Shown: piece by piece, positions 33,521-62,200 of the stretch | Position numbering within the stretch: the stretch's first letter is position 1 | Layout: every line of letters starts with the position of its first letter | Assembly: GCA_965655095.1 (NCBI GenBank) | Contig: OZ296650.1 | Coordinates: forward strand, 35,154,001 to 35,218,000 | DNA length: 64,000 nt | Direction: 5' to 3' | Origin: Haplodiscus bocki | Taxonomy: Eukaryota | Program-made: the position numbers and the translations under genes | The notes under the pieces: generated by a model | Databases searched by the model: none | What the model saw: only the letters and a program-made list of their open reading frames with translations | What the model was told of the DNA's origin: nothing

Positions 33521-33522
33521 AG

Positions 33523-36004: not shown

Positions 36005-36533
36005 ATGAGCGATCTGAATTTCGAGAAGCTTGGAAAAATTGGCCAAGGACAGTATGGAGTTGTATATAAAGCTAGAATGGTTGCAACCGGACATGAAGTA
36101 GCCTTGAAACGTATCTTGATTGATGAGTACGATGGTATTCCTTCCACAGCTTTGAGAGAAGTTTCGCTCTTACAAGATCTTAAGCATCAAAATATTGTGA
36201 AATTGATAGATGTACTGCATGTCGATGCGAAGTTTTATTTAGTTTTCGAGCTACTTGAAATGGATCTGGGACAGCTTCTGAAGTCAGCCCGTCCCGATGT
36301 GTTCCCGATAGAAGTAACCAAGTCTTTATTCAAGCAGCTGATCGAGGGTTTATACTATTGTCACTCTAGAAGAATCTTGCATAGAGATATTAAGCCTCAA
36401 AATCTACTTTTGAGTTCCGAGGGAGTCCTGAAACTAGCTGACTTTGGACTGGCGCGTTTGTTTTCACTTCCATTGCGGGCCCTTACGACTGAAGTTGTTA
36501 CTTTATGGTACCGGCCACCAGAAGTTTTGTTTG
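36005..36533 (+). CDS. First coding exon of a CDK1/2/3-like cyclin-dependent kinase (subdomains I-VIII)
   Basis: [36 protein letters not shown] and [11 protein letters not shown], with no lesions. Acceptor TTTTTTCAG ends at 35959 and donor G|GTGAGT is at 36533/36534. The ORF-track tail past 36533 is intronic. Downstream exons were not found in the window. Confidence 0.9.
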
Positions 36534-36604
36534 GTGAGTTTCCACTTTTCCCACTGGAATGCCAATCACTATTGCAGTGTTAAACGGTATTACATTGAGA
36601 TCTC

Positions 36605-36735
36605 TGTTTCTGGTAAAAAAAACTGGGTAGATAAAATAGGTCAATTCAGCTGAATATAGTAAGACCCCACACAACGATCGTTCATTAATCTGGAATACCA
36701 GTTACAAATTACAACACTAATTAATCAATGAAACA
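36605..36735 (-). repeat. Copia 3' LTR (131 bp)
   Basis: Identical to 41429-41557 except A8 versus A6; polypurine tract GAAAAGACAGAGGAA at 36736-36750 on the minus strand. Confidence 0.95.
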
Positions 36736-37102
36736 TTCCTCTGTCTTTTCTAAATAGGCAAGCACCAAATGACAAGCGACGCGCGATGTAACTATGCAGC
36801 GCGCAATGAATATATCAACAGTAGGTTGGTGCTAAAGGTGCACGCAATAACAACTGTACAGCGAATCTAATATATCAGCGGCTAATTGAGAGCTCATGCA
36901 TATATTATCAGAGTAGATACATGTACATGCGAAGTGAATATATTAACAGCCTGTAAACATGTGTTTAATGCAACAACATAACAACAAATACATGGCTAAA
37001 ATAAGAGATTACGGCACAAGAACAGCAAATTTAAAGGTGATTTAATTAATAGGTCAAGGAAGGATATTTACGTACAGCACGTTAACTAGGGTGAACTATA
37101 GG

Positions 37103-40100: not shown

Positions 40101-41417
40101 TACGGCGAGAACGCTCTCTTCACATTCTGTCTGCTCTGACCATTTCCCTCGCCCTGTAAACGTAAGATCAAGCGCGTAATGACCAGATTTCGTGATTAGC
40201 ATCTCATTTGGAGTTTTCTGGTCAAAAACAGGAACTGCATCGTTAATGGTGTCGATAACAGCCTTCATACGTTTCATGGCACTTTTGCTAAATAAAAGCG
40301 GGAGGTTCCCGTCAATCACATCAACCACTATAAAACATCTAACAGTGCATATTTCAACAGGCAACCGAATCTTGTATTTCGACCATGATGATTTTCCATC
40401 TCCAAACACAAATTTCGTTTGGGTATCGATTTTCTTAACCCTTTTTCTTGCAGTCTCAGGAAGCGATGCGATAAATCTGCTAATCCATGGATCACCACAT
40501 ACGCTCGAAGTACATGCGGTGTCCAGAATTCCGCGATTCTTTGTAGAGGTATCGACATCAGATCTGTTATTGTGTACAATAGCGCTCTTATTGCACCCTG
40601 CTTCCACAATATGGACACTTTCCACGACATCCACAGTTTCCCCACCATTTGTGTCTCGATCAGGGCAATTGCGGTACCAATGATTCACTTAACCGCAATA
40701 CGAACATCTCGTGATTCGGCCATCTTTGCCGAGAGGATTACGTCCTTGCTGCTTGGGTCCTTTTGAATACGGCCTATCCCGCTGATCCGCATTCTTCTGA
40801 TAAAAACCTTTGCGTTTTTGTCTTGCAGATGTTAAATACACAGGTTCTTCCTTGATCTCTGAAAAATTTGTTCCAACAACTTGGCGTTCGCAATCACCAA
40901 ATATACGTCTCATTGCTGATTTCATCGATTCATACTTTAGCTCCTGAGACGCCGTGAGCGCCATTGGTCGTTCCCGTATATCAAGAGCGGCATTTTCGAG
41001 TAATTTATAAGCGAGAATCTCATCTGGAAGCTCCATTTTGTGAGTCTTTGCCTTCTCATACAGGCGTTCGAATTCCAATATGTACGCAGTAATGGACATA
41101 CCCTCTCTCCGGACACAAATTTCGAAGTTCTTATATGCTTCGTAAGCACAATCCACTTGGTCCCGCTTAAAACTCTTGTCCAGTTTTTCAAAAAGCTTGT
41201 CTATTCCATTATCATCATGCAGGTCGTCTGCAGGTATAGAGAGAGCAATCTGCCTGGGCCTGCCAGTAAGTCGCAGCGCAATTGTAGGTGCCTGCTGTTT
41301 CTTGGTCATGGAAGTGATCCTCCTCCAGATATCAATTTCGTTCCTCCAAGTGGAGTAATCCGTCTTCTCTGTGTCTCCGAGTGTTGGCGGGGTCTTTGGT
41401 GAGCAAGGTTCCGTCAT
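37103..41417 (-). pseudogene. Copia gag-pol polyprotein, disrupted
   Basis: gag 40689-41417 with CCHC knuckle CSYCG*VNHWYRNC broken by TAA; PR/INT 38778-40688 (HVQFAH..CKIC, MDL, VDNGREF, NGLCER); RT/RNase H fragments at 38115-38366 and 37103-38029 (FADASF, YSDNKSL, QLANCLTK); at least 3 frameshifts. Confidence 0.92.
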
Positions 41418-41418
41418 C

Positions 41419-41427
41419 CTGCTACCA
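41419..41427 (-). promoter_or_regulatory. Primer-binding site for tRNA-iMet
   Basis: TGGTAGCAG, 1 nt after the LTR, is complementary to the 3' end (..CTGCTACCA) of animal initiator tRNA-Met. Confidence 0.85.
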
Positions 41428-41428
41428 A

Positions 41429-41557
41429 TGTTTCTGGTAAAAAACTGGGTAGATAAAATAGGTCAATTCAGCTGAATATAGTAAGACCCCACACAACGAT
41501 CGTTCATTAATCTGGAATACCAGTTACAAATTACAACACTAATTAATCAATGAAACA
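41429..41557 (-). repeat. Copia 5' LTR (129 bp)
   Basis: Direct repeat of 36605-36735, TGTTTC...GAAACA. Confidence 0.95.
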
Positions 41558-43942
41558 GTCTCTACCTTAAAGCAAATTAGCATCAAAAGTACTCTAACCC
41601 GAAGGTCTCAAGTCGGTGCTGCCGGTAAGGCTCGCAATATGTTACGGTGTATATGGTAGAAGTTGCTATATTTTGAATATCGGCATTATTTCCATCATTT
41701 GGACCTGTTTTATGCGCGTAGGTGCTTCTTGAACAATTTTGAGCATTTTGCTGAAACTATAAGTGAACCCTTAGCAGTGAGTTTTACGAAAAGTCACGGT
41801 CATAGTCGGGCACTTTTCTAAAAGGACCGACCTTGAGACCGTTCCAGGATGGCATTTTGATTCCCGATAGTGAGGAGGAAAGGCGGACGGCCGTCCCCGC
41901 CTACGGTCGGCGAGCAAGCTCCAACCATTTCGATAGTGATTTTTAACCCAGTATCTCTACTCATTCTTTATGAAAGGAAGAAAGTGTATTGGAAACCGGC
42001 TTATGCTTAGTTTTTAGGCGAGCGAAGCGAAGCCTATTCGCATAAGGACACGCAAAAAAGATTTCGTTTTTTCCCGTTCATGACATCCCTCTGCGTTTCA
42101 TCTCTTCAAATCCAATTTTCTCGGCACCTGTTGGTCGCTTTTTTCCGATTTTTGTATAAACACCATGAAAGGTTCACGATCTATCATGTTCCAAATTTTC
42201 GGACGCCGAAAGTTTTTTTCCAACGAAAAATAACTCAATTCTCGGAGTTTTTTAGAGGGCAAAGGGTATTTTTTTGAGTCATCTTTACAGGAATCTTGGA
42301 AATGCTAATGTTCTCGCATTAATCGTTGGAGCACCATTCAGCTGACTGGCGTGCTGTGATATTTTTGCCGATTTGCAGAGCGGACATTTTTGAATTTTTT
42401 CGAAACAGATTTGACAATCCCCATTGCCCACTGCGTTTCTTAATTTTGACTCTCATTTTCTACAAACGCATTTCTAGGATCCGTTTACTTTTTGCTTAGC
42501 TGCACTGGCAACGTAGTGATTGATCGGAGCCAAAGTTTTCGGTGGCCAAATATTTTTCGCCGGCGAGTTTTTGGCGAAAACAATTGAAAACCCAAATTTT
42601 TTCAGAAGGAAAGTGTTACTTTGTTGCACTTCTCTGGCCTAATATCCCATGCATGGCTTCTCAATGCTGATTAGGAGATGGAATATGAAGCGTTAGTTGC
42701 TTTCACTTTTTAGTGGATAATTTACTGGTTTTTCACAATATTTTTGCAGAAAATTTTTGTCCAAAAAATGAATTTTTAAATAAATTTCTGTATTATCTAA
42801 AGTTAGGCGCGTTCACCATGCCTCAAAGTGATGCATATCACTTGAATTGAGGAACCGTTCCTACAGCTGATTGTGTCACAAAGAACAGAATCTGACTGTT
42901 GCCTCCGATCCATGTCAGAGTATTGATTTCCAGAGGGAGGAAGGAATCCATCCATATACGTCACAGGAATGACTGGTGTAAAGTATCATCAGTGAAATCA
43001 TCAATTATCTTGTTTGTGACCAAAATCTGTGTTCCATATTCCAAGTTAAGTGACTTCTGCATTGATCAATGGGAAGTCATAGCGAGTATAGCTTCCTTTG
43101 TTTGTAATTGTTTCACCAGACATCACGGTTGTCTGCATGCCAGCAAAAGATTTTACCACGAAATGTTTTTATTCAGTCGAAGTAGCCTGTACTTTTTTGG
43201 GCAAAAGTCAAGAATTTCCAAGGGCACATAAGTTTCCCTCAGTAGATGTCTTTGGGAAAATTAGAAGGTCGTTGTTGTTCAGCTTCATTGAAAAGTCCGC
43301 AGGCATTTCATAAGATGAGCTAGATTCAGTGTCCAATACAGGTAATTTCATCTGTTGAAACAAATCGAAAGAACTACAAATTTGATGGTTATTTCTCTCT
43401 TTCATGAGTCTCTCCACCTTCACTGTCTTTCTATTGACAGCGTGTGATTTGTGCATGTTTGTTTGGTTAATGGTAGAGTGAACTGTATACTGTAGGCAAA
43501 TGAAGAACCATTCAAACTCTCAATAACGGCGGTAACTTGCAGAAGGTTTCCGGGAGCGTGCTTCAATGTTTGATGCAAAACTTTCTGTTGGATGTGGTGC
43601 CAAACTCTGATAAGTGTCATCCGGGATGTCCATAAATCGGTAACAGCCACATCTCAAAGCTCTTATCTTCTTCGTTAAGTGCAATCGGGGTGTGATTGCA
43701 TGATACAGAGAAACGGTTGCGGCATGTTGAAAGACAGACATGAATTCTTTATCTGTCGATATCCATACACAGTCGTACAAAGTCCACAATAGTTTTATCT
43801 TCATCTTTTTTTCTGCAAGTAGTAATTGATCATGTCATGAACACCGTGACAACCCTGACTCAGTACGTCCTGCTTTGTAGTCGATTTACATACACTCGGT
43901 AGGAACGTGTAACGTTCTACTGCTCACCTCTATGTAACATGC

Positions 43943-44469
43943 TGTAAGATTGCTGCGGGGGTTGTTGATATAGATCTTTGATATCTTTTCCCTTCTAGTC
44001 TTAAGACTTCAATTCCTTCTTTAGTGGCTATCTTCAGCGCGTGGCGTGAGGAAAATTTTCTTTATCTTGATTGAAGAATTTATCTCAGGAATATAGTGAA
44101 CTATTCAGTAGCAATCCCAAAATCTGCTGTCTCTCCTTAAATCTCTTATTTACAGCTTCATAAATTATCCAATCTATTTTTTGTCATCATGCGGAAATTA
44201 GAGTTCAATATAAGTTTATCTTCAATATCTCTTCTTTGCATTTAATTTCCATGCGGTTATTACATATTTATTTCTTGCCCTCTGATTTATTAGTTGTTTA
44301 TTTTTCCGGATATTAATATTTCCGGTTAGGGGAGGGTTCGTTGTCAAGAAAAGGTACATCAAAGAATCTAGTAACTCCTAGGTTTGATGAATTAAAATTG
44401 AATTAGATTGAGATCATGCTTTCCCAATTAGATTATAATTAATCTTAGAATAGTCGTTAAAATATTACA
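43943..44469 (-). repeat. Gypsy 3' LTR (527 bp)
   Basis: About 98% identical to 56324-56854 (roughly 9 substitutions and one poly-G indel by eye). Confidence 0.95.
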
Positions 44470-44552
44470 CTAGCCGACTTTAAGTTTTATTCTCCGGTTC
44501 TATTTTTCTTTGATGAAATATTATCCATGCTTTCTAACAGGTTACTTCTTCT

Positions 44553-46650
44553 TTAAACTCGGTGCATTTGTCGACTGAGATGTGCATATGTGGGTGCACT
44601 TTCTTCTCTTGTATCCATCAGTTGAGATTCGGTTAGTAGTAAGCTTTGATTACGCCATTGAATATTTTCATCATTCTTACCCGATCCAAGTGTTGGTCTT
44701 CTACCACCATTATTGGTTTTGGGGGATTTTTTTGTCCAGTTTGTGAGAGAAGGGTTGGAATGTGTGGAGTTTTTCGTAGCGGTGTAGCGCAAACATTAGT
44801 CCCAAGTGTAGTACCGCACTAACGTTGAATACTGCAATTCCAATAACCAAATGACTTTTCCACGATAAATAGTTATTGAATTGTTTTTCAAAAGAGGGCT
44901 TTAGCATTGTTAGTTTCTGTGCGATGGGTTCAGCTATTTGTTGGATGTTCTTTTTGTAGCCATATTGTGGTTGGGCTTGAAGTTCGAGTTTGACCGACTT
45001 CAATAGTTTCATATTAGCCTCCACTTTCGTATTGTAGTAAGGTAGTTCATCCACTGTTGGTAGTAGGCTGAACAAGTGTGCCATTGGTTGAGGCAGTTCC
45101 ACGTCCCGTTTGACTGGTGGGACTTTTGCACATGACGATAGGTCAGACCGGATTCTGATATTTTCACCATTTAACTGTTTACCACATTCTAGCGTTATTA
45201 CGCAGATTCTACATCCTTTGACTGTTTTCGAACCTGCCAGTGTTGTAGCGTCCATATAATTTTCTTTGAATTCGAAGTTGGCCTGGGCTGATGAAGTTAA
45301 GAGCCATATTCCATATCCCAGGTTTGTTGCTTTGACTTTCAGTGGTAGTGGGACTGGGACTGTATCACAGACTTCTAACGCATTCATAATTTCTCCAAAA
45401 TATGAAATTGCGAGGCATGACGAGTCTTTATTTTCTGTTGCCAAAGTTTCATGGCATATTCGATACTTGCTTGAGCCAATACATTTGTCAAGTTGATCTC
45501 TCGTTACTAGCGAAGTTTTCAAGTTTTTTGACACTGCCAATTGTTCTGCTTCCATATCCCATTTAATTGCCGTGTCTTCGTCCATTTGGGGTAGAAGCAC
45601 CCTTATTGCTTTGTACACTGTGAATGCTGTTTGTCGTGCTGCAAATGGGGTTGCCATTGTCATCAAAAGACCCTGATCCAGAGTGAATACGTCCAATAGT
45701 AGGCGTGATTCATAATATGCCAGAAGTTCTTGTTTTGGAGTGGCCAGTGTAAGTCGGCTATCCGACTTCTCTTGTGAGTCGTCAACCACTTTCAAAATTT
45801 GTTCCAAAGAGTCTTTGGGTAGTAGTGACATGGCAATATATTTTGAAAGTAAAGAGAATAGCGTTCATTATGTTCATCTGGAATGCGAATAGAGGGGCGC
45901 GATAGGCCTTGACATTGCTGTAGATTAGCGAAAATAGGGAAGATTTTGTATCAAAATTGAAGTTCACCTGTTGTAGTGTGTATGAGAGTTGATCGCAATT
46001 ACGCATGTCGTGAATATTATCGTGGAGTGTTTGAAATTGTTTGTCGATCTATTGCCAGTTCTCATTTTGGGTTTCTATAATTTGGGTTTAGATTTCATGA
46101 AGCAGGGCTAAATCCTTCGCGGCACGGAAAAATTTCTCATCGGTTTCATTTGCAAGTTGTTGTGAGTTATCTCCAGTGGCTATTGTATATTTTCCTAACT
46201 TTTCAATGTTTTTGGCATTCGTTTTGGCCTTTTCTTGGCACGAAACGGCTGCTATAGGTAGTGCTCTTCTAGACCTTTGGTTTTTCTTGATTTCGGTTCC
46301 CTTCAGGAAGGAGGATACCGCTTGTTTTATTTTAGTCAGGTCGTCCTCAGCGAACGCTATTTCTTTTTTTGTTTCTTTTAGAAGCCAGTCTACTTTGAAT
46401 TCGTTTTCGCCTGTGTTTGTGAAATTAACAAACACCGATAGGTCGTCATTTGCCACATGTTCTGTAATTCTTTTGCAACTTTGTCGAGGCTTTCCGTTAG
46501 TTGAATGTCAAATTTTTGATAGGGGCTGAGAATTGGGCGTTTACATATTTTTCGCCCGAGTATTTTTGTCTCTTCATGAAAGAATACTCCTCGTTCAAGA
46601 CTACCGTTATCATTTGTTGCTACTAGTATAAATAGCAAAAGTAGAATCAT
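44553..46650 (-). pseudogene. env-like class I fusion glycoprotein, disrupted
   Basis: Signal peptide MILLLLFILVA; furin site RSRR|ALPIAAV (46265-46276); heptad-like helices; Cys-rich region in ORF 44710-45831; TM segment LVIGIAVFNVSAVLHLGLMFAL; located just before the 3' LTR. Confidence 0.85.
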
Positions 46651-46755
46651 TATGGGGGCTGTTTTTGTTGAAGGTTGTATTAATTAATACCTTTGATTAT
46701 TGGAATACTGTTAGAACACAGATGGTTTGGGGATATATTTGCAATTTAAGTTGCT

Positions 46756-47090
46756 TTAAAGTTCGTCTTCTAGATAGTCCAACAGTTCTTCTAGTTTGTA
46801 TTTGAACGTTGATTCTAACTTCAATGATTTGTAGTGTTTGCTCAGGGTATCATAGAGGCTGTCGTGTTCAATTGTGTCACTTTCAATTTCCATATAGTAG
46901 GGTTCATTGTGGGGTTTGAAGAGAAGACTCTCATTCGAATGAAGGGACAGCATCCACATTGTTGTAATTGAATATTATTGATATAAATTGGGTTGTTTTC
47001 GGGTGGTGTCCACTGTAGGAGTACTTTGAATTGTAATTGAATTGGGGTAAGTTGCCAATGAACTGTAATTGTTTTTCCATATGTATTCAC
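46756..47090 (-). pseudogene. Gypsy accessory ORF C (one frameshift), paralogue of ORF A
   Basis: ORFs 46842-47090 and 46756-46959 join to give QFKVLLQWTPPENNPIYINNIQLQQCGCCPFIRM../..EIESDTIEHDSLYDTLSKHYKS..KLEELLDYLEDEL. Confidence 0.6.
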
Positions 47091-47481
47091 TGTTAGGTCT
47101 TCGAAATAATTTTTTATTTCAATTTGGAAGGGTTTATCAGAATTTCAAACTTCTCCAGCCACTCTTAGATGATTTTTTTTGCCATGCAAAAAATTTGAAA
47201 TTCAGGAGCTTTCGTTTTCTTAAAGAAGGAGAATGAGTAACTGACTGCTGGAGATTAGGTTGTAGAATGATTGTCGCAATAAAAAGGGAATTGTAGTTCC
47301 GTGGATACACATTCGGTGTTTTGACGGATATTAAAGTTGATTTGGACGGGACTTCGCCGGATATTAAATTTTGTTGGTACGGATATTTAAATGTGTCCGG
47401 TCAGATATGAACAGGTTGTCAGAGCTGTCATGGTTTTTGCTGGATCATGGAATGCAATTGTTAGTGTTGCAGTGCAGCCAA

Positions 47482-47766
47482 TTAGGTTTTTTCATTAATT
47501 TGATTTCCCATGAATTGAACTAAGGCATCCAGTTCAGTCGGATGAGGAGATGTATACAGACGTAACAATTTGTAGAGGCTAACGAATTTCTCGATTGTTG
47601 TGGAAATATCGAAGATCGCTTTTTAGCCATTGTTCATGTTAGGTTCGCTGATTGAAAGTCTCAGAGGTGCACAATAGGAGCATTTTTGCCATTGAATTCG
47701 GTGTATCGTAAGCAGTGTATCTTTTCCAGGTGGTTTCCATTGTAAGTTGACGTCAAATTTGTCCAT
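47482..47766 (-). pseudogene. Gypsy accessory ORF A (~94 aa, one internal stop), unknown function
   Basis: MDKFDVNLQWKPPGKDTLLTIHRIQWQKCSYCAPLRL..G*KAIFDISTTIEKFVSLYKLLRLYTSPHPTELDALVQFMGNQINEKT; homologous to ORF C. Confidence 0.6.
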
Positions 47767-49904
47767 TTGTCGTGTTTTTTGCCTTTTTTGTCGGTTCCCA
47801 CAATGGGTAAAAAATTGTAGAAGTGTCGTTTTTACGGGCGGATCGCTAGAGGTAATTTAGCTGTTGGTTGTTTTTGCGGCGGATATTAATGTCGGCGGCG
47901 TGTTAGGTGTCCTCTGAAGTTTTTTTGGCTGTTTTCTCAGTTGTAACCTTATTTAAACATTGTCGTTTAACTGGAAATGAGTTTAATTTATTTTATTTGA
48001 TGAGGTAATAAGCTTTCTGTTGCCTGTTGTAAAGTGACCAGTTGTTTTGGGGCTTTGGCGATCTGCTGTATTACATGTTTCTGATTTATGCTATTGTTTT
48101 TCAGAGAATGGAATGTTCATTTGTTACTTTGTTCGCCGACGCCATCCTGGAATGTTGCGATGATGGAACAACCGTTTTGGCGGGGCTCACGAAGGGTGAT
48201 TTTCTCTCATCGTGATCCGGAGTGTCCGGGTGTAAGTTCTGGCAGTCTCTAGCTACTGGTTATGAACTGGAAGTGGGGAAGTTTGTCCTTCTAGGGGTTT
48301 CGTCCCTGTTGTTCTTCTGCGTTCTGTTGTTCTTTTGGTTACAGGGAAGAAAGAACAGACAGCATGAGAGACTGTGAGGGCAGACTAACTGTTTTATTTG
48401 CAGTTCGTGCAGTGTCATTGCTGAGTTTAGTTTGATACTGTAGTTAGATTACTATCGTTTAGGTGTAGGCGTTGTGTTAGTTAATTGGAAGTGATTTGCA
48501 AATTGGATGTGTATCTTTTTTGTTTTTGAAAGGAAAAAATTTGCAATTGGAATTTAATTTCACTCACTTGGTTAGTGAGCTTCTTTAAAAATAAGTCTAT
48601 GAAGGTGTATTCTTCTGTGTGTGTGTTTCTTACAATTCATGGGCATGCAACGCAATGTTGCTACTTTTCAGAGTTTAGAATGGAAAGGTATAATCTACTT
48701 CAGTTTCTGCTCGGACAATTTCAGTCTGTGGAGGAGGCTGTCAAGTGTGACAGTCCATGTATTGTGAAGGGAGTCAGTTGTTCTTACAAGTCAGTGAAAC
48801 ATCAAGCGTTAGCTCTAAATTGCATTAATGTTCGTCAGTTATTACGATACTTCAAAAATTGGGGCGAGGACAAACCTAATTTATGTGCATTTCCTGAAAC
48901 AAGGGTATTGACTGCACTAATACCGCGTATTGAAAATTTGCAAAGATATGATTCATGATTTAACAGTTCTATAATACCCGTGAGTTCAGTTCATGACCCT
49001 ATTCTGGTAGCAACGGGTAATTGTGTAACTGGGTTGCACAGAGACGTTGGTCCCCCGACAGAAGTTATTGCCTCGCTTTTACGGGGTTGGAAAATCTGGG
49101 TATTTGCCTCCAAAGGGTTCCAGGAAGTGCTGGAATGTGACTAGGGGGAGCAAAGAGCGTATCCATCAGGGATTACGTGGAAAAATGAGGGGCGTCACTC
49201 GAAAGAGGTTTGGCTCTCGAAAACATCGGACCGTTCCCAAAAAGCTCGGTTAGTTTAGTATTTGTTCTAAATGATGATTCCCTTATCATCATTTAGATTA
49301 AATATTAAACTCTGTTATTAGGCTCTGTTTTTCGTTAGATATAATTTATTTTTGCATAATCCGAGATTCCTTATATCCTATCGAAACAAGCTTTGTATTA
49401 GGCGTTCGGGAAGGTATGATGTGTTGGCCTCACTCACTAATCTTAGGCAGTCGAAGTCCGCGTTCGGCCATTTTCATAGGGTGAACACTTTTTGCTCAAA
49501 TTTTGCCAAAAGTATAGTTGTTTTGTGAGCAATAGGTTAGGCCTAGTATCCTACTGTAATCGGCGTTTTCTGTGCTTGATGCTGGAGTATATAGGACTGC
49601 ACTAAAGCTATTTGGTCTCAGTCGAAGTGCGCGTTTGTTGATGACTAGCATGGCTTTTGAGGTGTTTTTGGACTTCATTGCAAAACTGGTTCCATTGTTG
49701 TCAATGTTGCTGGGTAAAAACCTGTCCCTGACATACAGAAATATTTCATTCCGCGGGTTTTCCGGGGTGTTTTTTGTCGTCAACTCTTGTACTTTTTGTG
49801 GTCTTCAAGATGTTGGGAATTTTTTTTGGGCCTTTTTTTGTCTCTTTGCCAATCTTTTTCGTTTCAGTGTCTGTTCAGCCGTTCCGTTTCAATACCTTAT
49901 CGTT

Positions 49905-50321
49905 TCTAATACAAACTGTTATACATACATTCGTCTGTTGGAAAACTTCGTGTAGAGTTTTGTGCACTATTGGTGATTGAAGTTTGTCTGGGCCACATCC
50001 AAGTTTTGGTAGTCGAATGTTTTTCACGCGGTGAGCCTCAGCGTGATTGCGCATCAAGATAAGGCTGTTCCTCAATGCATCATAGAAGGGTTTGTGGAAG
50101 TATTTTGGTTTCGTTACCAAATTGTATAACCATCTTCGTGAATAAAAGTCGTAAAATGCTAACACTGATTCTGGTGTTATTTTTTTGCAGGCTTCTCTTT
50201 TCATTTTTGGGTAGAGTCGGTCGAATCGCTTAGCAATACCTGCTCCCATGAAAAAATCGGAAGGAACACAGTGTCCCATGCTAGATGAAGTTCGAAAAAC
50301 GTCGTCTTGTACTATTGTCAC
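49905..50321 (-). other. TARG1/OARD1 (Poa1p-like) macrodomain fused to the integrase C-terminus
   Basis: GHCVPSDFFMGAGIAKRF..LYNLVTKPKYFHKPFYDALRNSL..RLPKLGCGPDKL matches the family pattern HCxSxDxxMGAGIA / LxTK / KPTY / PRIGCGLDxL. Confidence 0.88.
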
Positions 50322-53300
50322 TTGTGAGGTTTTCTTAGGTGCTTGTATTTCGTTCAAGTTAGTCCTACTTCTTTCCGAAGTCGTTCCTTCTTGGGTTGCG
50401 CCTAGTCTTTGTACAAACTGCATTTGCTGTTGTTGCTGTCGACGGTTATTGAGAAAATCCACAAAGTTTCTGGCTTCTACCGATTGTCCTTGATTTGTTC
50501 GTTTACTGCTGCAGGTTTGTTGGAATTGTTGTCCTGCCACTTCAAGAACACGTTCACCTAACCGTTTGGTCTGTTGTTCTTGTATCCTTGTTGAGCGTCT
50601 CGGTGCTGTATTGTTTTCCGCATATTCATCAGATTCTTCTGAAGCGTCCGGCAAATGAGCTGTGAGGTAAGGCGGTGGTGTAAGTATTCTTCTAAGTTGT
50701 TCAGCTCTAGGAGCTTGATGAACTGTTATTGGTTCTACTGTCACAGCTGCGGCGTCGGGTTGATTGACTATTTGTGCTGGCAGTGGTTGTTGAGCTTGTG
50801 CTCCAAAAGAGATTAAGACTCGAACTGGGCTGTCCAAAGTCGGAGTTTTCTTTTCCGGCGCCACTTGGTCTTTATCCAGGAGAGAAGGGAGACCGTTGTC
50901 AAAGAAGTCTTGATCGCCTCTGTAACATCCCATTGTTGGGTCTGTCTGAAAGTTTTCCGAGTTGATGTCCTCTATGTCTGTTACCTGATTTTGAGGTTTG
51001 ATTGGACGTAGTCTAATTCGGTGGACAATTCGTGTATAATTGGTTCCAGTTTTTCTGATGAGATAGTTAGATTCGGTTAAAACTCTCTGCACTCTATACA
51101 GAGCAAGCCATTTTTGGATAAGTTTCGGGCTGGAAACTGATTGTTCTGTGAGTCGGGGGTTCAGCAATAAGCAATATGTGTGTTCTGTCAGGGGATTTGC
51201 CCTTGCCTTTTGGTCGTAATACCTCCTGTATCTGTTGAAAGATTTCGTGAGACTTTCCTTTGTATTCTGGACTTTCTTCAGCATTTCATCTCTGTGATTC
51301 CACAAAGTCATAGTTGAATGCTGATTTCTGGAAACAGTTGCTGTAGAAACGAATATCCAAAAGCGTCACCGGGTCTCGTCCATGGAATATCACCGTTGGT
51401 GCGCATCCAATTGAGGTATGATAAGATGTGTTATGGATGAATGTTGCTAAGTTTAAGTATTTGTGCCAATTTGTGAAGGTCTGGTTGCTATTTAAATTCA
51501 GGATTCGCGTTAGTGCTGCATGTGCTCTTTCTACGACACCTATTGTTTGTGGCTGTTTCAATGATGCATGAGATATTTTGATTTCGAGTGGTCGGTTGAG
51601 TGCATGGAAAAGTTCAGACACAAACTGTGTGCCTAAGTCTGAGAGTATTTCCTGTGGTATGTATTTGTGTTGGAACATAATGGGAACTAAGGCTGTTGCC
51701 ACTGAGATTGCACTTTTTTTAGTCAGCGGTGTTGCAAATGGGTATTTAGTGAGAACATCAATAGCTGTCAGAACGTACTTTTACGGTGACGATGGAAATG
51801 GTCCCAGAATGTCTATCTGCATTAGTTCTCCTGGGAACGATTTCAATGTAGGAACTTCTTGCAGTCGTAGTCTAAATCGTGAGGGTTGTACTTGCTTTAT
51901 TTGGAGGCATGTGGAACAATTTCTGATTTAATCTGCTACTAATTCCACATAGTTTGGGCAATAGAAGCGATTTCTGATTTCCTGGATGGTTCGCGTTATT
52001 CCCAAGTGTCCTCCAGTTGGGGCGTTGTGTATTCTGTACATTTTTTCAACATTGTTTTTGGCCCGCACAATTATTTGTACAACATTTTGCCATCGTGTGC
52101 AAAGTATCGCCTGTAGAGTGTTCCATTCTCTATATAATCTTCGTAACTGCTTGAGGTACTTTTGTTCTATAGAGTAAATGGTGGTTGTAGGTGCGGACTC
52201 GGTTTCCATCCATTTGAGCACTTTTGCTATCACGGAATCCGAATTTTGTTCCTTTTTCAGGTTTGTAATTGTTGTTTCCAGTTCGGGGTAGTCGTCCATC
52301 GGGTTTGTGTGTTGGGTGGCGTTCATTTCCGTTGTTTTCCTGTTGTATTTTGTCAATTGTAGTTCTTTATCTGATGTCAAACTTTTTAGCTGGTTTACTG
52401 CCTGAGCATAGTGTCCGGATTGTTTTAGGGTTATTAGTGTGTTTATATCGACTACGTGGAGTAGGTCAACCGGTAAATTGTCTGCAAAGAGCTCATTGAT
52501 TGTATTGTCTGGTAGCTCTGGTCGTACATCTATTTCAATTTCTCTGATTGAGATTCTGTCCGTAAGTTTCAATTCAATTGTTTTATTCGGGTTTGATTGC
52601 AAATGAGATAGGAAATCTGCTGCAGCATTGGCTTTTCCTGGAATGTGAGTTACCACAATGTTAAATGCTGTTACTAAATCCACATAATTCCAAAGTGATG
52701 GGGGAATTCTTTTGGCTTGGAAGAATCTGGTCAAACTTTTGTTGTCAGTCAGTATGAATACTGGTTTTTCACTTCCCCATATCAAATGAGAAAACGTTTC
52801 CAAGGCAAAGGAAAGAGATAAGAATTCCTTGCAGTATATTGACATCTTTATTTGCGCTGTATTGAAAACTTTAGATTCGAATGAGACGGGTGCATAAGAG
52901 TTAACAGTTTCTCCTTTGTTGTCTTTGACGTAGTCTTCGATCATTAGTACAAATCCGCTGAAGTGGTAACTAGCGTCACAAAGGATGGCGTATTGCATTC
53001 CCGGTTTGGCGAGTCGAAGAGTTTGTGTTGTGGTGGTTTGAAGTTTTTCTCGTAGTACTTTAAATGCATTCTCAATTTCATCTGTTATTTCAAACGAGAC
53101 ATTTTTGCGCAAATGTTTGTAGAAGGGTATGAGGTGTTCGTTCAGGTTCGGGATGAAGCTTCGAAAGAATTGTAGGAAACCTATTAGCCGTTTTACTTGT
53201 TTCACTGATTTTGATCTTTCGAGTTTCTCTTAGAAACTTTTCGATTTTGCCTTTTTCAAGTCGTAAGCTCTTTGTTATGACATTTCCAAGGAAACTAACT

Positions 53301-55132
53301 TTTTCTGATCCAAAGACACATTTTTCTGGCGATAGTTTGAGTCCTTATCTGCGTAAGCTTTTGAAGTTTTGTCGTAAATTGGGTATGAGTTGTTCAACTG
53401 ATTCCGCTCCACATCCAAAATCATCCATGAACTGTGTACAAACATTTGCTGAGAGATGTGGCTCTAAGTAGTTTTTCACAAAAGCACTGAAGCCTGTAAC
53501 TGATCTGTTCAGACCTCTAGCTAGTCTTTGGTAAGCCATAGTTCGGGAAGCAAAATTGAATGCAAGCAGCTGTACCGAAAGAGGGTCAGCCATTCTTACA
53601 CAATGGTAGGCTTGAGAGCAATCTAATTTACAAAAGATTGATTTTCCAGCAAAATGCGCTGTTGTGTCTGCCATTGTTGAAATCGGGAAATTGTTGTTAT
53701 GATAATCATGTAAGAGAAGGTGGTTAATTCGGCGTAGGTCCACTAGAATTCTGAGCTCCCCATTTGATTTGCGGTGTGCAAAGATTGGGCTACTGTATTT
53801 TGAATGGTTGAGGCTTGTAATGATTCCGAAATAATGTAAGAGGGCAAGCTCTACTTGTAGTTCTTCACGTAAGTGAATCGGCGTTGGTGGGCTTTGGGTG
53901 TAGACCGGTTGGTCATGTTCTGGGGTTAGCTTCATTGAAATCTCAGAGTTATATCCAACATCAAATCAATGTTTAGCAAAAATATCCGAAAATTTTATCA
54001 AAAAGTCTTCAATTTGCTGTCTTTCATCCACTTTAAGTATAGATTCGTTCCATTTGAATCTCTGTAGAAACTGGTTACGGTATTCATCATTAATATATGG
54101 GTCTATACTGTCTAGTTCTCTTAGCTTCTCTAGTTCATTGTAGATTTTCTTAACACTTTTCAGTGCTGTGGGGTTCTTGCATGTTCCTGGCGTTGGGAAC
54201 CAGAATCTTTTGTAGTCGGGTTTTTGTCGAGGTGGTTAAAAATCTGCATCAAATTCTTCGTCAATTATCAGCTGGATGATTTTTTTATCAAAGTCGTCTA
54301 GAGTTTTTGAATTTGGCCAATGTTAGTAGTTGTGGCTCTATCGGGGTTAACGTTTCCGCTTGTTGAAGTGAGAGAAATTTGAAAAATGCATTGTCCGAGT
54401 TTCGGGGAATAGTAATTTCTTTGGTTTGAAGGTTTAGGGCAGATAAGTACAAGTTTCCGTCAGAGTCAGTTCGTGATAATGGAGAAGTAATGCACAGTCC
54501 TGTTTTTTCTTCAAAGCTCACTTTTGGTTCTACAATACCACATACATCAGCAAATCGTTTGCTTTTCATTTGGAGGTTGCATTTTAATATAGCTTCTTGG
54601 TTGGGGGCACTAAAGCATTTTTCCATTGTTCTAATAGGGTATTGGGGTTTTCCGGATTTATCAGTTTGTGTTGATATTTCGTTCAACTGCAGCCTTAAGT
54701 CGGGTAATCTCATCAGATTCTTTCTGGGGTAAAGTTGAATGGAGTTGTTTTTGAAAAATGGATTTCCTAAAATGATACTGGTCGTGTTTGGAAGTACTAA
54801 GAAATGTTCTTTGAAATAATTTTTTGCTATTGAAAATTCGAGTTCGATTTGGCCACGCACAGGTATAAGTTGTCCTGAAGCTAATTCAACTTTACTGACC
54901 TCAGAAGGTTTTGAGATGGTCACTGTCGTTCCAAAAGATGATTTCAGGTCCTCGTAGTCTTTTTCACTGATCGCATTTGCACAGGCACCAGTATCTATCA
55001 GTGCTTTCCTTTGTTGGTTGTTAGGGAACTTCAGTGGAACATATGATAGGACATCACCTTCAAGAGAAATGCATGCTGTTTTTTCGTTTTGGTCATCCGT
55101 CTTCTCTCGTTGTTTTTCACACTGGCGTGGCT

Positions 55133-56281
55133 TCACTCGTTTTTTGGTGCGGTTTGATATGGTATTTGTTGGTTTCCGTTCGCTGGTCTCCATTGGTTAC
55201 AATCTCTTGCGTAGTGGTTTGGGTAACCACAAATGTAACATACCAGTTTGGAATATGTAGTTTCCGCTATATGCTCTCGTTTGGTCGATTCCTGGGTTTG
55301 AGGTGAATTATAGTTGGAATAGGAACTGTAGTCCTTACGGTTTTGATTACCATTGAAAAAACCTCTGTTATTATTGAAACGCCCTCGTCCTCTGTTGTTG
55401 GAATATCCTCGTCCTCTGAATCCTCGTTGGTTGTTGAATCTGTAATTGCCGCGCTGTGAGGGATTAAAACCACTATTACTACCATTGGAAATTTGGTGGC
55501 TTGGGAGGTGGAGAGTTGATTCTATTAGATAAGTCTGTTTGTTGTTGTTTCAGTTCATCTTGTTGCTGTGTAAGTTTTGTTAATGCCCCTACTAAGTTTT
55601 CTGAAAGTGTTGAAATAACCTCATTGAAGGCATATTTCGTCCAGTCGTCATTTGGACAAAGTTCGAAGAATACCATTTGGAGTCTTGCAACTGTATAAAG
55701 GTCTTGCACCGTTGCTGCCTCATTTTGGTCCATTAGCTTTTTTTTGATAAAATTTGGCATGGCGTTCGTGAAGATTTCCTTGATTCTCCTGTTTCGCTCA
55801 TTAACTGCATTGTCTAGTACTGCTTGGTTGGCATTTTGTGCGTTCTGGACTCTGTCAATTTCTGCTTGTTCATTCGGTGGGTTAGCTGGCGGAATTGGTG
55901 GTAACACTGGATCGGGTAAGCTTGTGTTGCTTTTATCTGAACTTGTTCCAAGAAGTCTTCTGGACTACCATGCTCTTGGTCAAATTCTAAGTTGTGAAGC
56001 TGTAGTATGTGGAGTTCTCGGAGGTTTGGGTTGCAGTAATGATTTCTCAGTGCCGTTATTGCTGCATCAAAGTCATCTCTGGTTGCTTGTGGTAAAGTTC
56101 GGAAGAACTGCAGGGCTTGGTCTAATAAGTGAAGTTGAAGAAACTGGGGTCGGTTGGCATTTGGGATAGTGCCAACATTAATGAGACTTTTGACAAGACT
56201 TTCGAAATCTGGCCAGTTTTCATCTGCTTTTCCGCTGAATGGGCTGAGAGTAATATGTGGTTGTGGATTTGCTGCTGCCAT
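55133..56281 (-). pseudogene. Gypsy gag (capsid, RG/N-rich region, CCHC knuckle), frameshifted
   Basis: PFSGKADENWPDF..LHLLDQALQFFRTL (retrotransposon capsid); RGFRGRGYSNNRGRGRF; CYICGYPNHYARDC at ~55198-55239; stop TGA at 55133-55135. Confidence 0.85.
55139..55145 (-). promoter_or_regulatory. -1 ribosomal frameshift heptamer A AAA AAC at the gag-pol junction
   Basis: gag codons CCA AAA AAC GAG TGA place the heptamer in X XXY YYZ phase; the protease ORF (54288-55193) is in the -1 frame. Confidence 0.75.
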
Positions 56282-56323
56282 TGTTTTCGGATAGTTGTAT
56301 TCCTCACTTCCTCCTTGTCACCA

Positions 56324-56854
56324 TTTAAGATTCCTGGGGGGGGGGGTCGTTGATATAGATCTTTGATATCTTTTCCCTTCTAGTCTTAAGACTTCAACTC
56401 CTTCTTTAGTGGCTATCTTCAGCGCGTGGCGTGAGGAAAATTTTCTTTATCTTGATTGAAGAATTTATCTCAGGAATATAGTGAACTATTCAGTAGCAAT
56501 CCCAAAATCTGCTGTCTCTCCTTAAATCTCTTATTTACAGCTTCATAAATTATCCAATCTATTTTTTGTCATCATGCGGAAATTAGAGTTCAATATAAGT
56601 TTATCTTCAATATCTCTTCTTTGCATTTAATTTCCATGCGGTTATTACATATTTATTTCTTGCCCTCTGATTTATTAGTTGTTTATTTTTCCGGATATTA
56701 ATATTTCCGGTTAGGGGAGGGTTCGTTGTCAAGAAAAGGTACATCAAAGAATCTAGTAGCTCCTAGGTTTGATGAATTAAAATTGAATTAGATTGAGATC
56801 ATGCTTTCCCAATTAGATTGTAATTAATCTTAGAATATTCGTTAGAATATTACA
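56324..56854 (-). repeat. Gypsy 5' LTR (531 bp)
   Basis: Direct repeat of 43943-44469; followed on the minus strand by TGGTGACAAGGAGG (PBS position) and the gag ATG at 56281. Confidence 0.95.
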
Positions 56855-59249
56855 CATGCTCATTAACTTTTCGCCAAATTGACTGGAATGGGAGTCATTT
56901 TTCGGCTTACTGGTTTTGACAATGTGAAGCTGTTGTTATAGAGATGCAAGTCGTTGAGGTTTGTTCTTCGCAATTTTGAACGAAGAGGGTTGTGGGCAGG
57001 ATGAACATTCTTTGCAGAATCTCCTGTGTGATGACTACAAGCCGTTTAGAGTAGGTTTCCTTCGTCAATACAAATTGGTTGTCTAATCTCAAACCTATTG
57101 AGAAGTGTAAACCCCTGAAGATATGTTGGCAATATTCAGCTACGAAGAGATTGGTCAAGAAAAACGACGTCAAATATTGGATAATGGAAACGATAATTTT
57201 GTCAAAAGATGAAGAATTATCCTTTCAAAGTCAACATCTCAGTCTACTAATATTGGAAAGTGAGGTATCATTCAAATCCTTCTTGATGCGGTCAACTTGA
57301 ACAGCGTTAATTGTTTTCTATTTTGTACGATCTGGTGTTCTTGGCAACTACAAACTTCATCTTGAAGACAATTTTTTTGTTCTGTGAGCCGGCCTCCAAG
57401 ACTGTGAATACATTTCGTTTATGGACTTTGGCAACGGTTTCAGGAGGTTTCGCAAATTTTCCTTCACCGTCTGTCTGTCTCACTTTCTTCCTTCACCAAT
57501 AGTTACAGAATTTACGTGGCCAGGCGTGTTTGAATTTTGTCTAAGTGTTGTGAAGGCAATTAAAACAAAGTTGAACTTACAACAAAATCATCCTGATATG
57601 AGTATGTGTACACCATATCGCGAGCGGGTCTATGTCTCGATTTTTTATATCTCGTGCAGCAATCGGAGGTTCGCAGGCACTTAGTTCAACATGGTTTTGA
57701 TTCCATGGCTGATGTGTCTGATCGAAAACAGCTCTTGGAAAAGATTTGATGTCGTGCCAGAGTTTGTTTTTTAAAATCACTTGTTCATTTTCTTTCGCTG
57801 ATTGGCAGTGATCGGTTTTCGTTTGGCGAAAAAATGTAATCATTATGTCGTATTGTATGGTATTGCATATCTTTTACTCAGGAATAGGTTTTGCTTTTCT
57901 TGTTTCCGATTGAACGGATGTAACAATTTGGTAGTGAGAAGCATTGTGAAACAAGAACACTTGCTGATGAATATCATCGATTGCAGATAAAAACCATATA
58001 CGTTCCTCTAGGAAATTTTATTAGACGAACTCATCCAACCTTGTCACATGCTAAAATGTCGCAGTTTCCAAAGCGCCACCAAAAGATCCTAACTATCTCG
58101 TTTGTAGCAAACGGTCTCCAGGATAATCATCAAATTGACCATTAGACTTGAACAAATGCATAATCGAATGTTGTCGTAGAGTTTGGTGACTGAAGTTTAA
58201 TTTTTTTCCAGTTTCGAAAAACAATTAAGTAGACAATCACTGCGCCTGTAACTTTTTAGGGATTTTGGAAGTAAAGAAGTAACAGGAAATTTAGATTGAA
58301 ATTGCGTTTTATAATGCCTATCATGCCTGCTGCGTAGTTGAAAGCGAAGAGGCAGGTTGTAGTTTTGTACTGACGTTTCTTCTTCCTTGTAGTTTTTGTC
58401 AACGAGAAAGGGCTTCGGTGACATTGCGCCTGTTGCGTTATCCCAACTTGGTTTATATAAGCGAGAGTACTTTTTAATGTTCCTATAAAGTGAGACTAGC
58501 GTAAACCTTTTAAACTTTGTGAAGATGACCCTTCATCAGTCGATGCTTTAACCTGGAAACAAAATGTGTTTTTGTGACTTGGGTTTGGTGTAGTTTATAG
58601 AAATTGAGTGCACGGAAGCATACTTGTGTCGAGTGTTGTAAATGCTATTCGCCGTAGATTTGAATTTTAACCAGCAATTTTTCAGCCTTCTGGACACTTC
58701 CTTCTAATTCCAAAGAAAAAGAGAAAATGTTTTTCTTTTCCTTATAATTTACCAGTAGGAGAATGTCGCACATTTCCCCTTACGTCAGTGATCAGTGAGT
58801 AAATCAGATCTAAAAATCGACAAGTATTTTGAATCCTTGCGTTTAAATAATTCATGAAGTCGTTTCACACATAAAATTCTTGTTAAATGGAGAATGGACT
58901 TCATTCTGTTTTTCTTCCCGATTGATGAACGGGAAGCTCTGGGAAAAATAAATACTCAAGTTGGGTTTTTTTCAAGTTTTACGACATGGAACACGCAGGC
59001 GATATTATCTTGCACTTGACTGCTGACATAATGAAGAGAATTTTTGGCAGCATTTTGTCGATTTTAGAACTCTGAGCAGAAGTTGGGCGCTCGAAGTCTC
59101 CGTCAAGAGGTTGGGAAACTGTCATGCTTTATTTGGCTCGTTTTGATTGGTAACGGTTATTAGGAAGATGCGAGTCCCCTTTCCAGCCCAACTTGTAAAA
59201 GAGCAAGTGATGAAACCTGAATAATAGCCATATGCGAATACTTTTTTGT

Positions 59250-62200
59250 ACAAAAACAACCTGATTACCGGGGAAGTCTGAGAAAAAAGTTTTGAAATTT
59301 GGATTGTATCTAGCTCTTCATTAACAAATCGCTTAAATGGAAAATGGTATCGACACCACAAGCAGTCAATGTGGAGAAAACTTTTAGTTGCAGTAGGGTA
59401 AGTTAAAACGAATTACAGTCTTGGTAGAGTAGTCGTTTGAGGGCCTCGTTCACCAGACGGTCAACATGGATTAACATTCGTCTTTGAGGTGGCCATCCTG
59501 CTTCTTCAAATGTCTTGGTCTGATGACAGTTGCAATATTCTTGGAACCAAGTCCTAGAGCAACATGTAGGATTTCATTTTAACGGGATCTTAATTGCCTT
59601 CCGGACGCATCGAGCCGTTATTAAATCAGAGCTTGCCCAAACCAGTACAATAATTTTAGAGACCTGAGAAAGCTTCCCAACTTTTTTCAAGAATACGGAT
59701 GACCTTTATAATGGTAATGAAAGTACAATGCAAAGGAAACAATTTCTGCCACTTTTAGAAAAATTTGCCGATAAAATAGAATGCACAACTTATAACTTTG
59801 GCTAACGTTGCTTCACCAGTTCCTCGTTGAGGGTTCTTTCGCTCATGCCACCAATTATCAATCCCGCCAGTGATGATTAAGATGACGTTTCAGTTACCAT
59901 TGAATATTTGTCCAATAATGTCGTAGCTTTGGTACTCCCACAGCTAAGAAAATCTACTTCACAACATGTTTTTTACTGGGCCTTTTTGTTTTGTGGTTGC
60001 TTCCGATGACCAATGTTCAATATTTAAATAAACTTAAGTAATTTTGGAACTCTGAGAAAATGTGTCCTGATTTTTTGCTCTTTTAGATCACTTCGTTCAA
60101 ATTGGATGGAGATAATGTATCTGGCTCTATGAATATTTTTTCGAAAATGTTGCCGGAGACAGTTCCAATCACAAGTCGCTCGCCATTACCTGTTAACTAG
60201 TTACTGTGAATTGTCAACTAGTGTTAACTAGTTGACAGTGAAAATAACCTATCAATCAATTTTTCAGTTACCGAGATTTGTCGAAGCTAAATTTGAGTGA
60301 AATTGTTGTAGGGAGTGTCAGTTGCACTGTTTCAGGTTAAACAGCGTGGCATTGATCTCAATTCCCTTGGGTTAATATTTTAACATCTTAGTATTTCCCT
60401 CGTGAAACTCATCCAATTCATTTTCTCTTTCTTATCGTGGTCCTTCTGAAAACATTGTGCAATTTTCATAATTTTCATTTCTGTTGGTTTGATATCAATA
60501 GGTGAAAAGCGTTTTTGTCGATGTTGGTGTTTCTATTGTCTTTTGTTTCTGAGATAACTCTAGATGTACTTTCTATAGTTGATAGATTACAGAATGTTTA
60601 ACTTTTTTCAACGTTTCTTGAACTTGGAATGTTTTGGCATTTCCTGTTGAGACAGTCCACCGTAAGTGGGTCCTTAAAAAAGGACTGTTATCATGACGAA
60701 ACAAAAAAGAGGGAACTTAAAAACCGGAATTTAGCTGTCGAATAGCGACAAAAACTCAGATAGCAGACACTCAGAAACAGTGAAAAAAAAGTCGTAGTAG
60801 CATAGCATTAGCAGAAAAGCGGCACCAAAAAGGACACTTACAAAATGGAAAATAACTTAGTAGGCAGACGTGCAGAACGCATTAAACATCAAAGCAAACA
60901 AAAATACGCATACAAAAAAAACAGCAGTTGAGGAACAGCCGAGTTGAATCAGCAGTTATATATCAGCACAACATCAGATAAACAACATACACCTCAAAAA
61001 AATGGTCGAGCAACGCAAAAAAGCCAGCAAGCAGTCAGTTATTATCCACACTAGGTTAACCGATTTGTGGAACAAAGTGGCGAAAAGCAAACACACAAGA
61101 ACAGAATGGAAAAACTATATGGAAATTGTCATTTGGACTCGACAACCATTGCCAGAGAACAACGTGAGAAAGCATGAAACGGCTGAATGCCACTAGCAGA
61201 AAACAAGCAAAACTCCGGAAATGCCCAAAACAGAACCACTGCAAATACCCATTACATCCTAGACAGGCGGCTAGCGCACTCGCGGACCGTTGTAAATATC
61301 AAACTTTCCAAGATCACAAAAGAGTTGAATGTTTTTCCTGAGGTGATCTTTGTTAAGATTTACGTGCAGAAGAAAGGATAAATGGAAACTCCTTTGTGGG
61401 TTTACTCAGTTGACAGTCAATTCCGATCAAATTTTGAAAACTAGAGCCTACCAAAAAAATCATTAATAATTTTTCAGAAGTATTAGATTTTCGATCAACC
61501 TCAGAAAGTATTGGGTAATAATCGCAAGTTAAGGCAGTCATTTTTTTCAGCAAGGAGATCCAACAACTCAGCAAGTCTTCCTAATGCCAATACAATAATT
61601 GGAAAAAACGTTACGTTGCTTTGTGATTGAACAATACGATATAGACTGACATTAAGAAACGTCGATCAATGTATCCTGTGAAATTTTGACGATTGAATAA
61701 TTTAAAAGCAACCGTATTGAGGTGATGAACAGGTTTTTGGTCCTATTGCTAAAGGTGACAGGCACGCCAGAAAATGTTACAGTGCTGAATCATGTGACAA
61801 CTGTTTATTTTCCCCGAAAACAATTGTTCACACTAGAAAGTCTGAAAAGGTTTCAAAGTTTGGATTGTATCTCGCTCTCAACAATTCGGCTAAACGGAAA
61901 AGGGTATCAACACTGGAAAAAGTTGATGTGGAGAACACTTTTGGTAACAAAAGGGTAAGTTAAAATGTATTACTGTCGTTTGATGTCATGATTCAGAAGG
62001 TCCAACAAGGATTAACAGCTTTCTCTCAGATGGCCATCCTCTTTCTTCAAATGTTTTGTTCTGATGACAGTTGCAATTTCAATGGAACCAAGTCCTAGAT
62101 CCTCAGCTAGGATGTCATTTTTAATGGGAACTTGATATCATTTCTAATGGGAACGAGGAATCAAGCCAAATCAGAGCTTGCCCAAACCAGTACAATGTTT

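Follow-up and report, generated by a model that had tools for sequence, protein, structure and literature searches.

The window analysed here is a stretch of 64,000 nucleotides from Haplodiscus bocki (GenBank assembly GCA_965655095.1, contig OZ296650.1, positions 35,154,001 to 35,218,000 of the forward strand). Between 43943 and 56854, on its minus strand, lies a Ty3/Gypsy long terminal repeat (LTR) element with an env-like gene and, beyond its integrase, a domain that an earlier sequence-only reading had taken for an ADP-ribose hydrolase. This copy of the element is dead, because stops and frame breaks interrupt pol, env and an antisense gene. Its features, in window coordinates, are as follows.

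43943..56854, minus strand: whole LTR element, about 12.9 kb, flanked by the 5-bp target-site duplication CATGC at 43938-43942 and 56855-56859, with outer ends TG...CA
56324..56854, minus strand: 5' LTR, the same as the 3' LTR at 508 of 514 bases
directly after the 5' LTR end, minus strand: primer-binding site beginning TGG (TGGTGAC)
55136..56317, minus strand: gag, fragmented, including a CCHC zinc knuckle (Pfam DUF1759, E 3e-5; zf-CCHC, E 3e-5)
54288..55196, minus strand: aspartic protease region (Pfam gag-asp_proteas, E 2e-4)
51928..54307, minus strand: reverse transcriptase (RT), RNase H and integrase zinc finger, interrupted by stops and frame breaks (Pfam RVT_1, E 8e-9; RT_RNaseH, E 6e-14; Integrase_H2C2, E 5e-7)
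51289..51780, minus strand: 3' part of the integrase core (Pfam rve, E 6e-8)
50331..51365, minus strand: integrase C-terminal part (Integrase_p58_C match) and linker rich in proline and glutamine, with the macrodomain in the same frame; unbroken with the core at loci L045 and L039
49875..50330, minus strand: TARG1/OARD1-type macrodomain and stop codon (PDB match), with the lysine codon at 50111-50109 and the aspartate codon at 49988-49986
48572..49241, plus strand: antisense JmjC-like gene, broken here, 70-85% identical to the open natural copy P0161
44556..46665, minus strand: env-like gene, broken here, 74-89% identical to a natural 739-residue frame at locus L082
43943..44469, minus strand: 3' LTR, from the LTR-pair comparison

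The LTR pair, the target-site duplication, the primer-binding site and the order gag, protease, RT, RNase H, integrase are those of a Ty3/Gypsy element. Pfam found no Chromo domain in the window open reading frame (ORF) or in database protein P0005, so the mark of a chromovirus is absent.

The ORF from 51365 to 49875 on the minus strand encodes 496 residues: the integrase C-terminal part, whose Pfam match is weak (E 0.006), the linker of about 185 residues, and the macrodomain at 50330-49878. In a phmmer search of the PDB, the macrodomain matched, across residues 2-139, the human TARG1 structures 4j5r, 4j5q, 2eee, 2l8r and 2lgr (E 2-3e-20); the DarG-type entry 5m31 reached E 1e-3 only. The lysine of LVTK aligns to K84 of TARG1 and the aspartate of GCGPD to D125, which are its catalytic residues (PMC6397177, PMC8501950). 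The published TARG1 pattern, TKx(30,35)Px[IL]GxGxD (PMC6397177), is matched by the window domain and by 123 of 150 representative matches. All of this bears out the TARG1-type identity given in the sequence-only reading. The Pfam Macro match, at E 1e-3, scores 19.5 bits and lies under the 22-bit cut-off.

The likeness to human TARG1 (OARD1, C6orf130; PDB 4j5r, 2eee) covers the whole domain (E 2e-20), the K84 and D125 equivalents, the H32/C33 loop and the signature, and the window copy has basic residues at the K50, R86 and R126 positions. TARG1 stands alone, whereas the element domain is fused to a retrotransposon Pol and is multicopy. The sequence-only reading had also called the domain DarG-type, and this label fell. 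The macrodomain of the bacterial antitoxin DarG shares the ALC1/TARG1-like class and the catalytic lysine (PMC8501950, PMC9411070), but it lacks the aspartate of the Lys/Asp dyad (PMC9411070). Here the aspartate is present, and the NCBIfam DarG profile scored 34 bits against a cut-off of 250, over profile positions 26-145 of 338 only. The domain at the integrase C-terminal end of the window element is therefore a TARG1/OARD1-type macrodomain and not a DarG-type one.

Is the macrodomain truly part of Pol? It had been described as in frame with the integrase C-terminus. This holds for the integrase C-terminal part and the linker but not, in the window copy, for the integrase core, which a frame break near 51290 parts from the macrodomain-bearing ORF. 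Other natural copies are unbroken: one frame of 978 residues runs from RNase H to the macrodomain (L045), and frames from the integrase core to the macrodomain are found at L039 (806 residues) and in database protein P0001. The pol frame of this Gypsy element family ends in a macrodomain.

Searching the genome yielded 151 matches among the best-scored of 5833 candidates, and a single tandem array accounts for about 65 of these. We took 43 distinct loci by rank or long open frame; removal of nine from a second Gypsy lineage and of three array neighbours left 31 copies, which are the window's two subfamilies. The catalytic residues said in the sequence-only reading to be kept are indeed so, the lysine in 30 of these 31 copies and the aspartate in 27, and the histidine is present in all 31. 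In the distal-ribose pocket, H32 is found in 31/31, C33 in 30/31, S35 in 28/31 and T83 in 29/31. Where TARG1 has S35 and L124 the window copy carries proline, and it is the only one of the 31 to do so at either position. More widely, lysine and aspartate are both present in all 8 non-redundant element domains of the Haplodiscus bocki genome and in 27 of 28 database element domains. This retention shows no apparent drift towards a pseudo-enzyme.

Substitution ratios tell how strongly the domain is constrained. Between the subfamilies, over 25 non-independent pairs that are near saturation, the macrodomain had a ratio of nonsynonymous to synonymous substitution rates (dN/dS) of 0.17, compared with 0.21 in the linker and 0.06 in the integrase core; the corresponding ratios of proportions (pN/pS) were 0.36, 0.46 and 0.17, with 0.09 for RT. 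One deep pair gave 0.17 for the macrodomain, with a 95% confidence interval of 0.10-0.28. In a sister family dN/dS was 0.20 for the macrodomain (from the 9 pairs, out of 45, whose pS exceeded 0.1), 0.33 for the linker and 0.05 for the integrase core. Judged by these ratios, the macrodomain is shown to be under purifying selection at depth. The sequence-only reading had allowed for a domain that evolves neutrally with its residues unconserved; at depth this is not what we find (dN/dS 0.17, dyad kept), but recent pairs look near-neutral. Decay of dead copies would give such values and so would relaxed selection.

The near-neutral recent pairs, and a constraint only somewhat above that of the linker, are consistent with an old capture kept as a folded or nucleic-acid-binding appendix of little current function. 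We consider such a passenger very unlikely. Active-site residues are kept across families of about 37% domain identity, the deep interval is 0.10-0.28, and two trees reject the idea that the after-integrase layout arose once.

These trees bear on a claim of the sequence-only reading, that the macrodomain occupies the slot in which chromoviruses carry a chromodomain. In the window clade it does lie at the integrase C-terminus, and at all 14 sister-family loci retrieved through the similarity of their env the domain follows integrase and shares about 37% identity with the window domain. Of two close-family loci fetched in the same way, one has it there. Elsewhere the position varies. Among 50 records with a macrodomain and a Pol domain, it lies in the RNase H-integrase gap in 21, after a protease with no RT in the record in 12, after integrase in 10, after RNase H with no integrase in the record in 4, and before integrase, in the protease-RT gap and before RT in one each; in the last of these Pfam puts it before the protease. 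The 50 records are non-independent, several being copies from the same genome, while some ENA records may be Haplodiscus bocki or close kin; the integrase of P0244, for example, is identical to that of locus L153. The named carriers, all insects (Athalia rosae, Harmonia axyridis and Uroleucon formosanum), have the macrodomain after RNase H.

An integrase tree of 30 rows places the window clade in one group (100/100 support) and rejects a single origin of the after-integrase layout (p-AU, the approximately unbiased test, 0.001). In it P0104, with the domain after integrase, is sister to P0236, with the domain between protease and RT (100/99 support), and P0257, again after integrase, is nested among RNase H-integrase types; long branches were flagged for P0205 and P0075. 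(The automatic name of P0075, a JGI/IMG record, combines transposase with O-acetyl-ADP-ribose deacetylase.) On the macrodomain tree, two long or oddly composed rows being excluded, a single clade of after-integrase domains is rejected too (p 0.008). Both trees thus indicate that the after-integrase layout arose more than once. The TARG1-type domain is more widespread than first supposed and less bound to the chromodomain slot.

Could the macrodomain nevertheless act as a chromodomain may, binding ADP-ribosylated chromatin or damage sites and steering integration there? In each of the window-clade families examined it sits at the integrase C-terminus, which fits such a tether, as does the recruitment of overexpressed TARG1 to sites of DNA damage (PMC4695847). 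Chromoviruses and chromodomain-bearing errantiviruses likewise carry an accessory domain after a Ty3/Gypsy integrase (PMC13524379; bioRxiv 10.1101/2021.11.30.470311), but the window element has no chromodomain, and its accessory domain is a predicted enzyme that shifts between Pol positions. A pure reader would not need the catalytic pair, which is kept. The domain also occurs ahead of the protease, in the protease-RT gap and in the RNase H-integrase gap, and in P0205 the integrase is followed by a chromodomain and then by a TARG1-type macrodomain (a weak rhabdovirus glycoprotein match lies beyond these). The insertion-site bias suggested in the sequence-only reading did not appear: 106 env-marked insertions showed none at the scale of chromosomes or telomeres (Kolmogorov-Smirnov p 0.61; 12 lay near ends, where 10.6 were expected), in a coarse test with no macrodomain-free control. 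We therefore regard the tether as distinctly unlikely, and the chromodomain analogy, true of position in the window clade, is weakened by the other Pol positions, by the differing sister elements and by P0205.

Where did the domain come from? A tree with host-type and element macrodomains, proposed in the sequence-only reading, rejects one after-integrase clade, as stated, but at 142 columns cannot resolve the donor. It does not reject one origin of all element macrodomains (p 0.09), the grouping of the window clade with a candidate host gene (p 0.29), or that of all element domains of the genome (p 0.34). This candidate host TARG1-like gene (G000:C2:12306343-12307326, minus strand; L121, L151:4844-5827) is a near single-copy open frame of 328 residues with no pol domains within 10 kb, 36% identity to the window domain, and one partial relative elsewhere (72%). 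The second Gypsy lineage (L031-L038, L050, L122-L150, L152, L153) has its macrodomain lying between RNase H and the integrase, within many near-identical open pol frames of 1580-1604 residues. Some of its members carry an env-like ORF followed by a 343-residue ORF with a DnaJ-like match (E 7e-6).

Two further occurrences of the domain deserve mention. The tandem array at about 120.05-120.18 Mb of G000:C1 (L117, L118) has a repeat unit, about 1.53 kb long, that comes from the linker-macrodomain region of the element family, 76% identical to the window over 935 bases, and the domain is apparently frame-broken in most of its copies; Tandem Repeats Finder, with a period limit of 500, did not detect this array of roughly 1.5-kb units. 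TARG1-type macrodomains are also found in DNA ligase III-like proteins (P0049, P0188, P0192, P0199 and others), and others are joined to PNKP, NADAR, HMG-box or RWD.

The element carries a second putative enzyme. Between pol and env lies an antisense gene, broken in the window but open at L045:1041-1943 (plus strand), with further copies at L105:5912-7027 (minus) and L112:4105-5181 (plus). The open natural copy P0161 matches Pfam JmjC at E 1.8e-4, with 22.3 bits against a cut-off of 24, and shows similarities of 0.92-0.95 to JmjC clusters in Atlas. We take its HxD/E...H iron triad and 2-oxoglutarate lysine and threonine to be the JmjC motif. The HxD...H triad is kept (H in 27/29 copies, D in 25/28, distal H in 26/27), as are the 2-oxoglutarate residues (K in 28/29, T in 26/29). 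dN/dS was 0.35 and 0.17 in two comparisons, and at 25 of 30 JmjC-like loci the other strand encodes a macrodomain no more than about 1.5 kb away. An antisense ORF of at least 245 residues is present at 11 of 14 sister-family loci; two that were translated are much diverged and have an HxE...H motif, and a sister ORF matches the first group weakly in a profile comparison (hhalign E 2e-4, probability 44%) and Atlas JmjC clusters at 0.96. Neither the window-clade nor the sister version found a match among PDB structures, and the structure model was unusable (predicted local distance difference test, pLDDT, 34). As judged from its motifs and substitution ratios, an antisense JmjC-like gene is carried by the clade under purifying selection.

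The natural 739-residue env-like ORF at L082 has, by eye, a signal-like start, RSRR with a hydrophobic stretch, and a hydrophobic segment at its C-terminal end. This anatomy is F-like by eye, and the env type has no confirming profile match: searches of Pfam, NCBIfam, PDB and the phage collection gave the protein no significant match. Haemagglutinin and spike heptad matches (E 0.1-1) were not counted as evidence, and a single-sequence structure model of an env fragment was unusable (pLDDT 34). At L115:4591-8437 (minus strand), a close env copy has two unrelated long ORFs (704 and 606 residues) upstream where pol would be; one of them has a weak endonuclease VII match (E 1e-3). In its LTR-gag-pol-env-LTR layout and, by eye, in the F-like anatomy of its third ORF, the element resembles the metazoan env-containing Ty3/gypsy elements termed errantiviruses in an operational sense (PMC13524379). 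A term search of that survey and its preprint, covering the text and seven supplements, found mention of neither macrodomain nor JmjC.

The rest of the window holds other repeats. A second LTR element lies at 36617-41560, between 122-base direct repeats at 36617 and 41439, with integrase before RT (a Copia-like order, from motifs by eye); it apparently interrupts a cyclin-dependent-kinase-like exon at 35984-36583 (plus strand), which has PSTALRE where PSTAIRE is the usual motif. Broken elements like long interspersed elements, with endonuclease and RT motifs by eye, occupy 30749-34332 (minus) and 28647-30255 (plus), and one has a PHD-finger-like ORF1 at 33523-34332. At 59323-63956 and 2157-4573 lie diverged repeats spaced by about 2.3-2.5 kb (78-90% identity) and an exact duplication at 1.9-kb spacing beside an N run.

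What might the macrodomain do? We lean, with modest confidence, towards an active ADP-ribosyl hydrolase, one that would rid the element's RNA, cDNA or proteins of the ADP-ribose made by PARPs. At the end of the Pol polyprotein, the predicted working enzyme would travel with Pol into the particle and the integration complex and would there remove ADP-ribose put by host PARP enzymes on element molecules, a modification that may serve the host as a defence. By analogy with TARG1 biochemistry, a lysine adduct would form and be resolved by aspartate-driven hydrolysis, and the substrates would be base-linked or acidic-residue-linked ADP-ribose. TARG1 reverses thymidine-linked ADP-ribose on DNA (PMC8501950) and uracil-N3 and guanine-N1 ADP-ribose on RNA, using for its RNA substrates a basic surface of K50, R86 and R126 (bioRxiv 10.64898/2026.03.31.715305). 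The window copy has R, K and K at these positions. Median net charge, as a descriptive measure, is +9 and +7 for element domains, +2 for named non-element proteins and 0 for the candidate host gene. The host genome has 31 PARP-domain matches above the Pfam cut-off.

The variable position in Pol, the chromodomain beside the macrodomain in P0205 and the repeated origins favour a position-independent enzyme over a chromodomain-like tether; the element's domain likely strips tags from its own molecules rather than steering insertion. Of the two functions offered in the sequence-only reading, counter-defence against PARPs or a tether, the former fits better, but both remain predictions.

Several observations weigh against a hydrolase that protects the element. 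The Lys/Asp dyad is equally frequent in non-element controls (15/16 and 164/167), and since all these rows were found by similarity, its retention is not independent of the search. By pN/pS the macrodomain is far less constrained than RT or the integrase core and somewhat more than the linker. Three recent pairs gave dN/dS of 0.87, 0.62 and 0.34, with 1 inside every confidence interval. Q replaces K50 in 16 of 31 copies, and N stands at the R126 position in 10 of 31. Searches not aimed at it directly turned up no paper in which PARPs are shown to restrict an LTR retrotransposon.

A working hydrolase need not be a counter-defence. It could instead do housekeeping: in the course of reverse transcription and integration, ordinary repair PARPs would mark nicks, cDNA ends and single-stranded gaps, and clearing this ADP-ribose would allow the insertion to be repaired. 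Unligated Okazaki fragments and overhangs are sites at which PARP1 modifies single-stranded DNA, a mark that TARG1 takes off (PMC11102865). The commonest macrodomain positions, flanking integrase or RNase H, would suit this role. Most Gypsy elements, however, do without a macrodomain; its patchy and repeated gain looks more like conflict, and the co-carried antisense JmjC-like gene hints at the countering of host modifications. We hold housekeeping to be unlikely and return to the hydrolase as an eraser of host-made tags.

Elements with related features have been described. As the sequence-only reading noted, macrodomains are known from some retroelements: fish endogenous retroviruses bear macro domain ORFs (PMC4977317). 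In these epsilon-like viruses, compared here by the description in that review only, the macrodomains are additional ORFs and not fusions to a Ty3/Gypsy Pol. Host-type accessory enzymes are also carried by fungal DNA transposons with TET/JBP, for which a counter-silencing role is proposed (PMC12730594), and by elements with GDSL/DEDDy ORF3s in a rotifer study that found modules exchanged among elements (PMC5408684). The enzymes are different ones, and macrodomain and JmjC go unmentioned in the passages drawn on from both papers; nor is a macrodomain named in passages of a study of chromatin-domain/transposon fusions (bioRxiv 10.1101/2021.11.30.470311). SIRT6 ADP-ribosylation of KAP1 silences LINE-1, a known link between this modification and a retroelement (PMC4695847). 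Literature searches, some of them too broad to settle the matter, brought up neither a TARG1-type domain described in Gypsy Pol nor a JmjC in an LTR element; their scope did not extend to subscription journals, Repbase or CDD descriptions, or supplements on bioRxiv, any of which may hold a mention.

Macrodomains are established counter-PARP tools of RNA viruses. Because TARG1 reverses base-linked ADP-ribose on DNA and RNA (PMC8501950; bioRxiv 10.64898/2026.03.31.715305), the finding of its type in Gypsy elements points to a specific substrate. It is possible, though we put it forward as a doubtful extension, that Ty3/Gypsy elements repeatedly took up and shuffled a TARG1-type eraser since hosts ADP-ribosylate the bases of element RNA or cDNA, an undescribed layer of defence, and that the env-bearing clade pairs this eraser with an antisense JmjC dioxygenase as a two-enzyme kit against host modification. 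A TARG1-type domain with its catalytic pair kept in many Gypsy lineages, and moved within Pol, would be an evolutionary sign that ADP-ribosylation restricts LTR retrotransposons.

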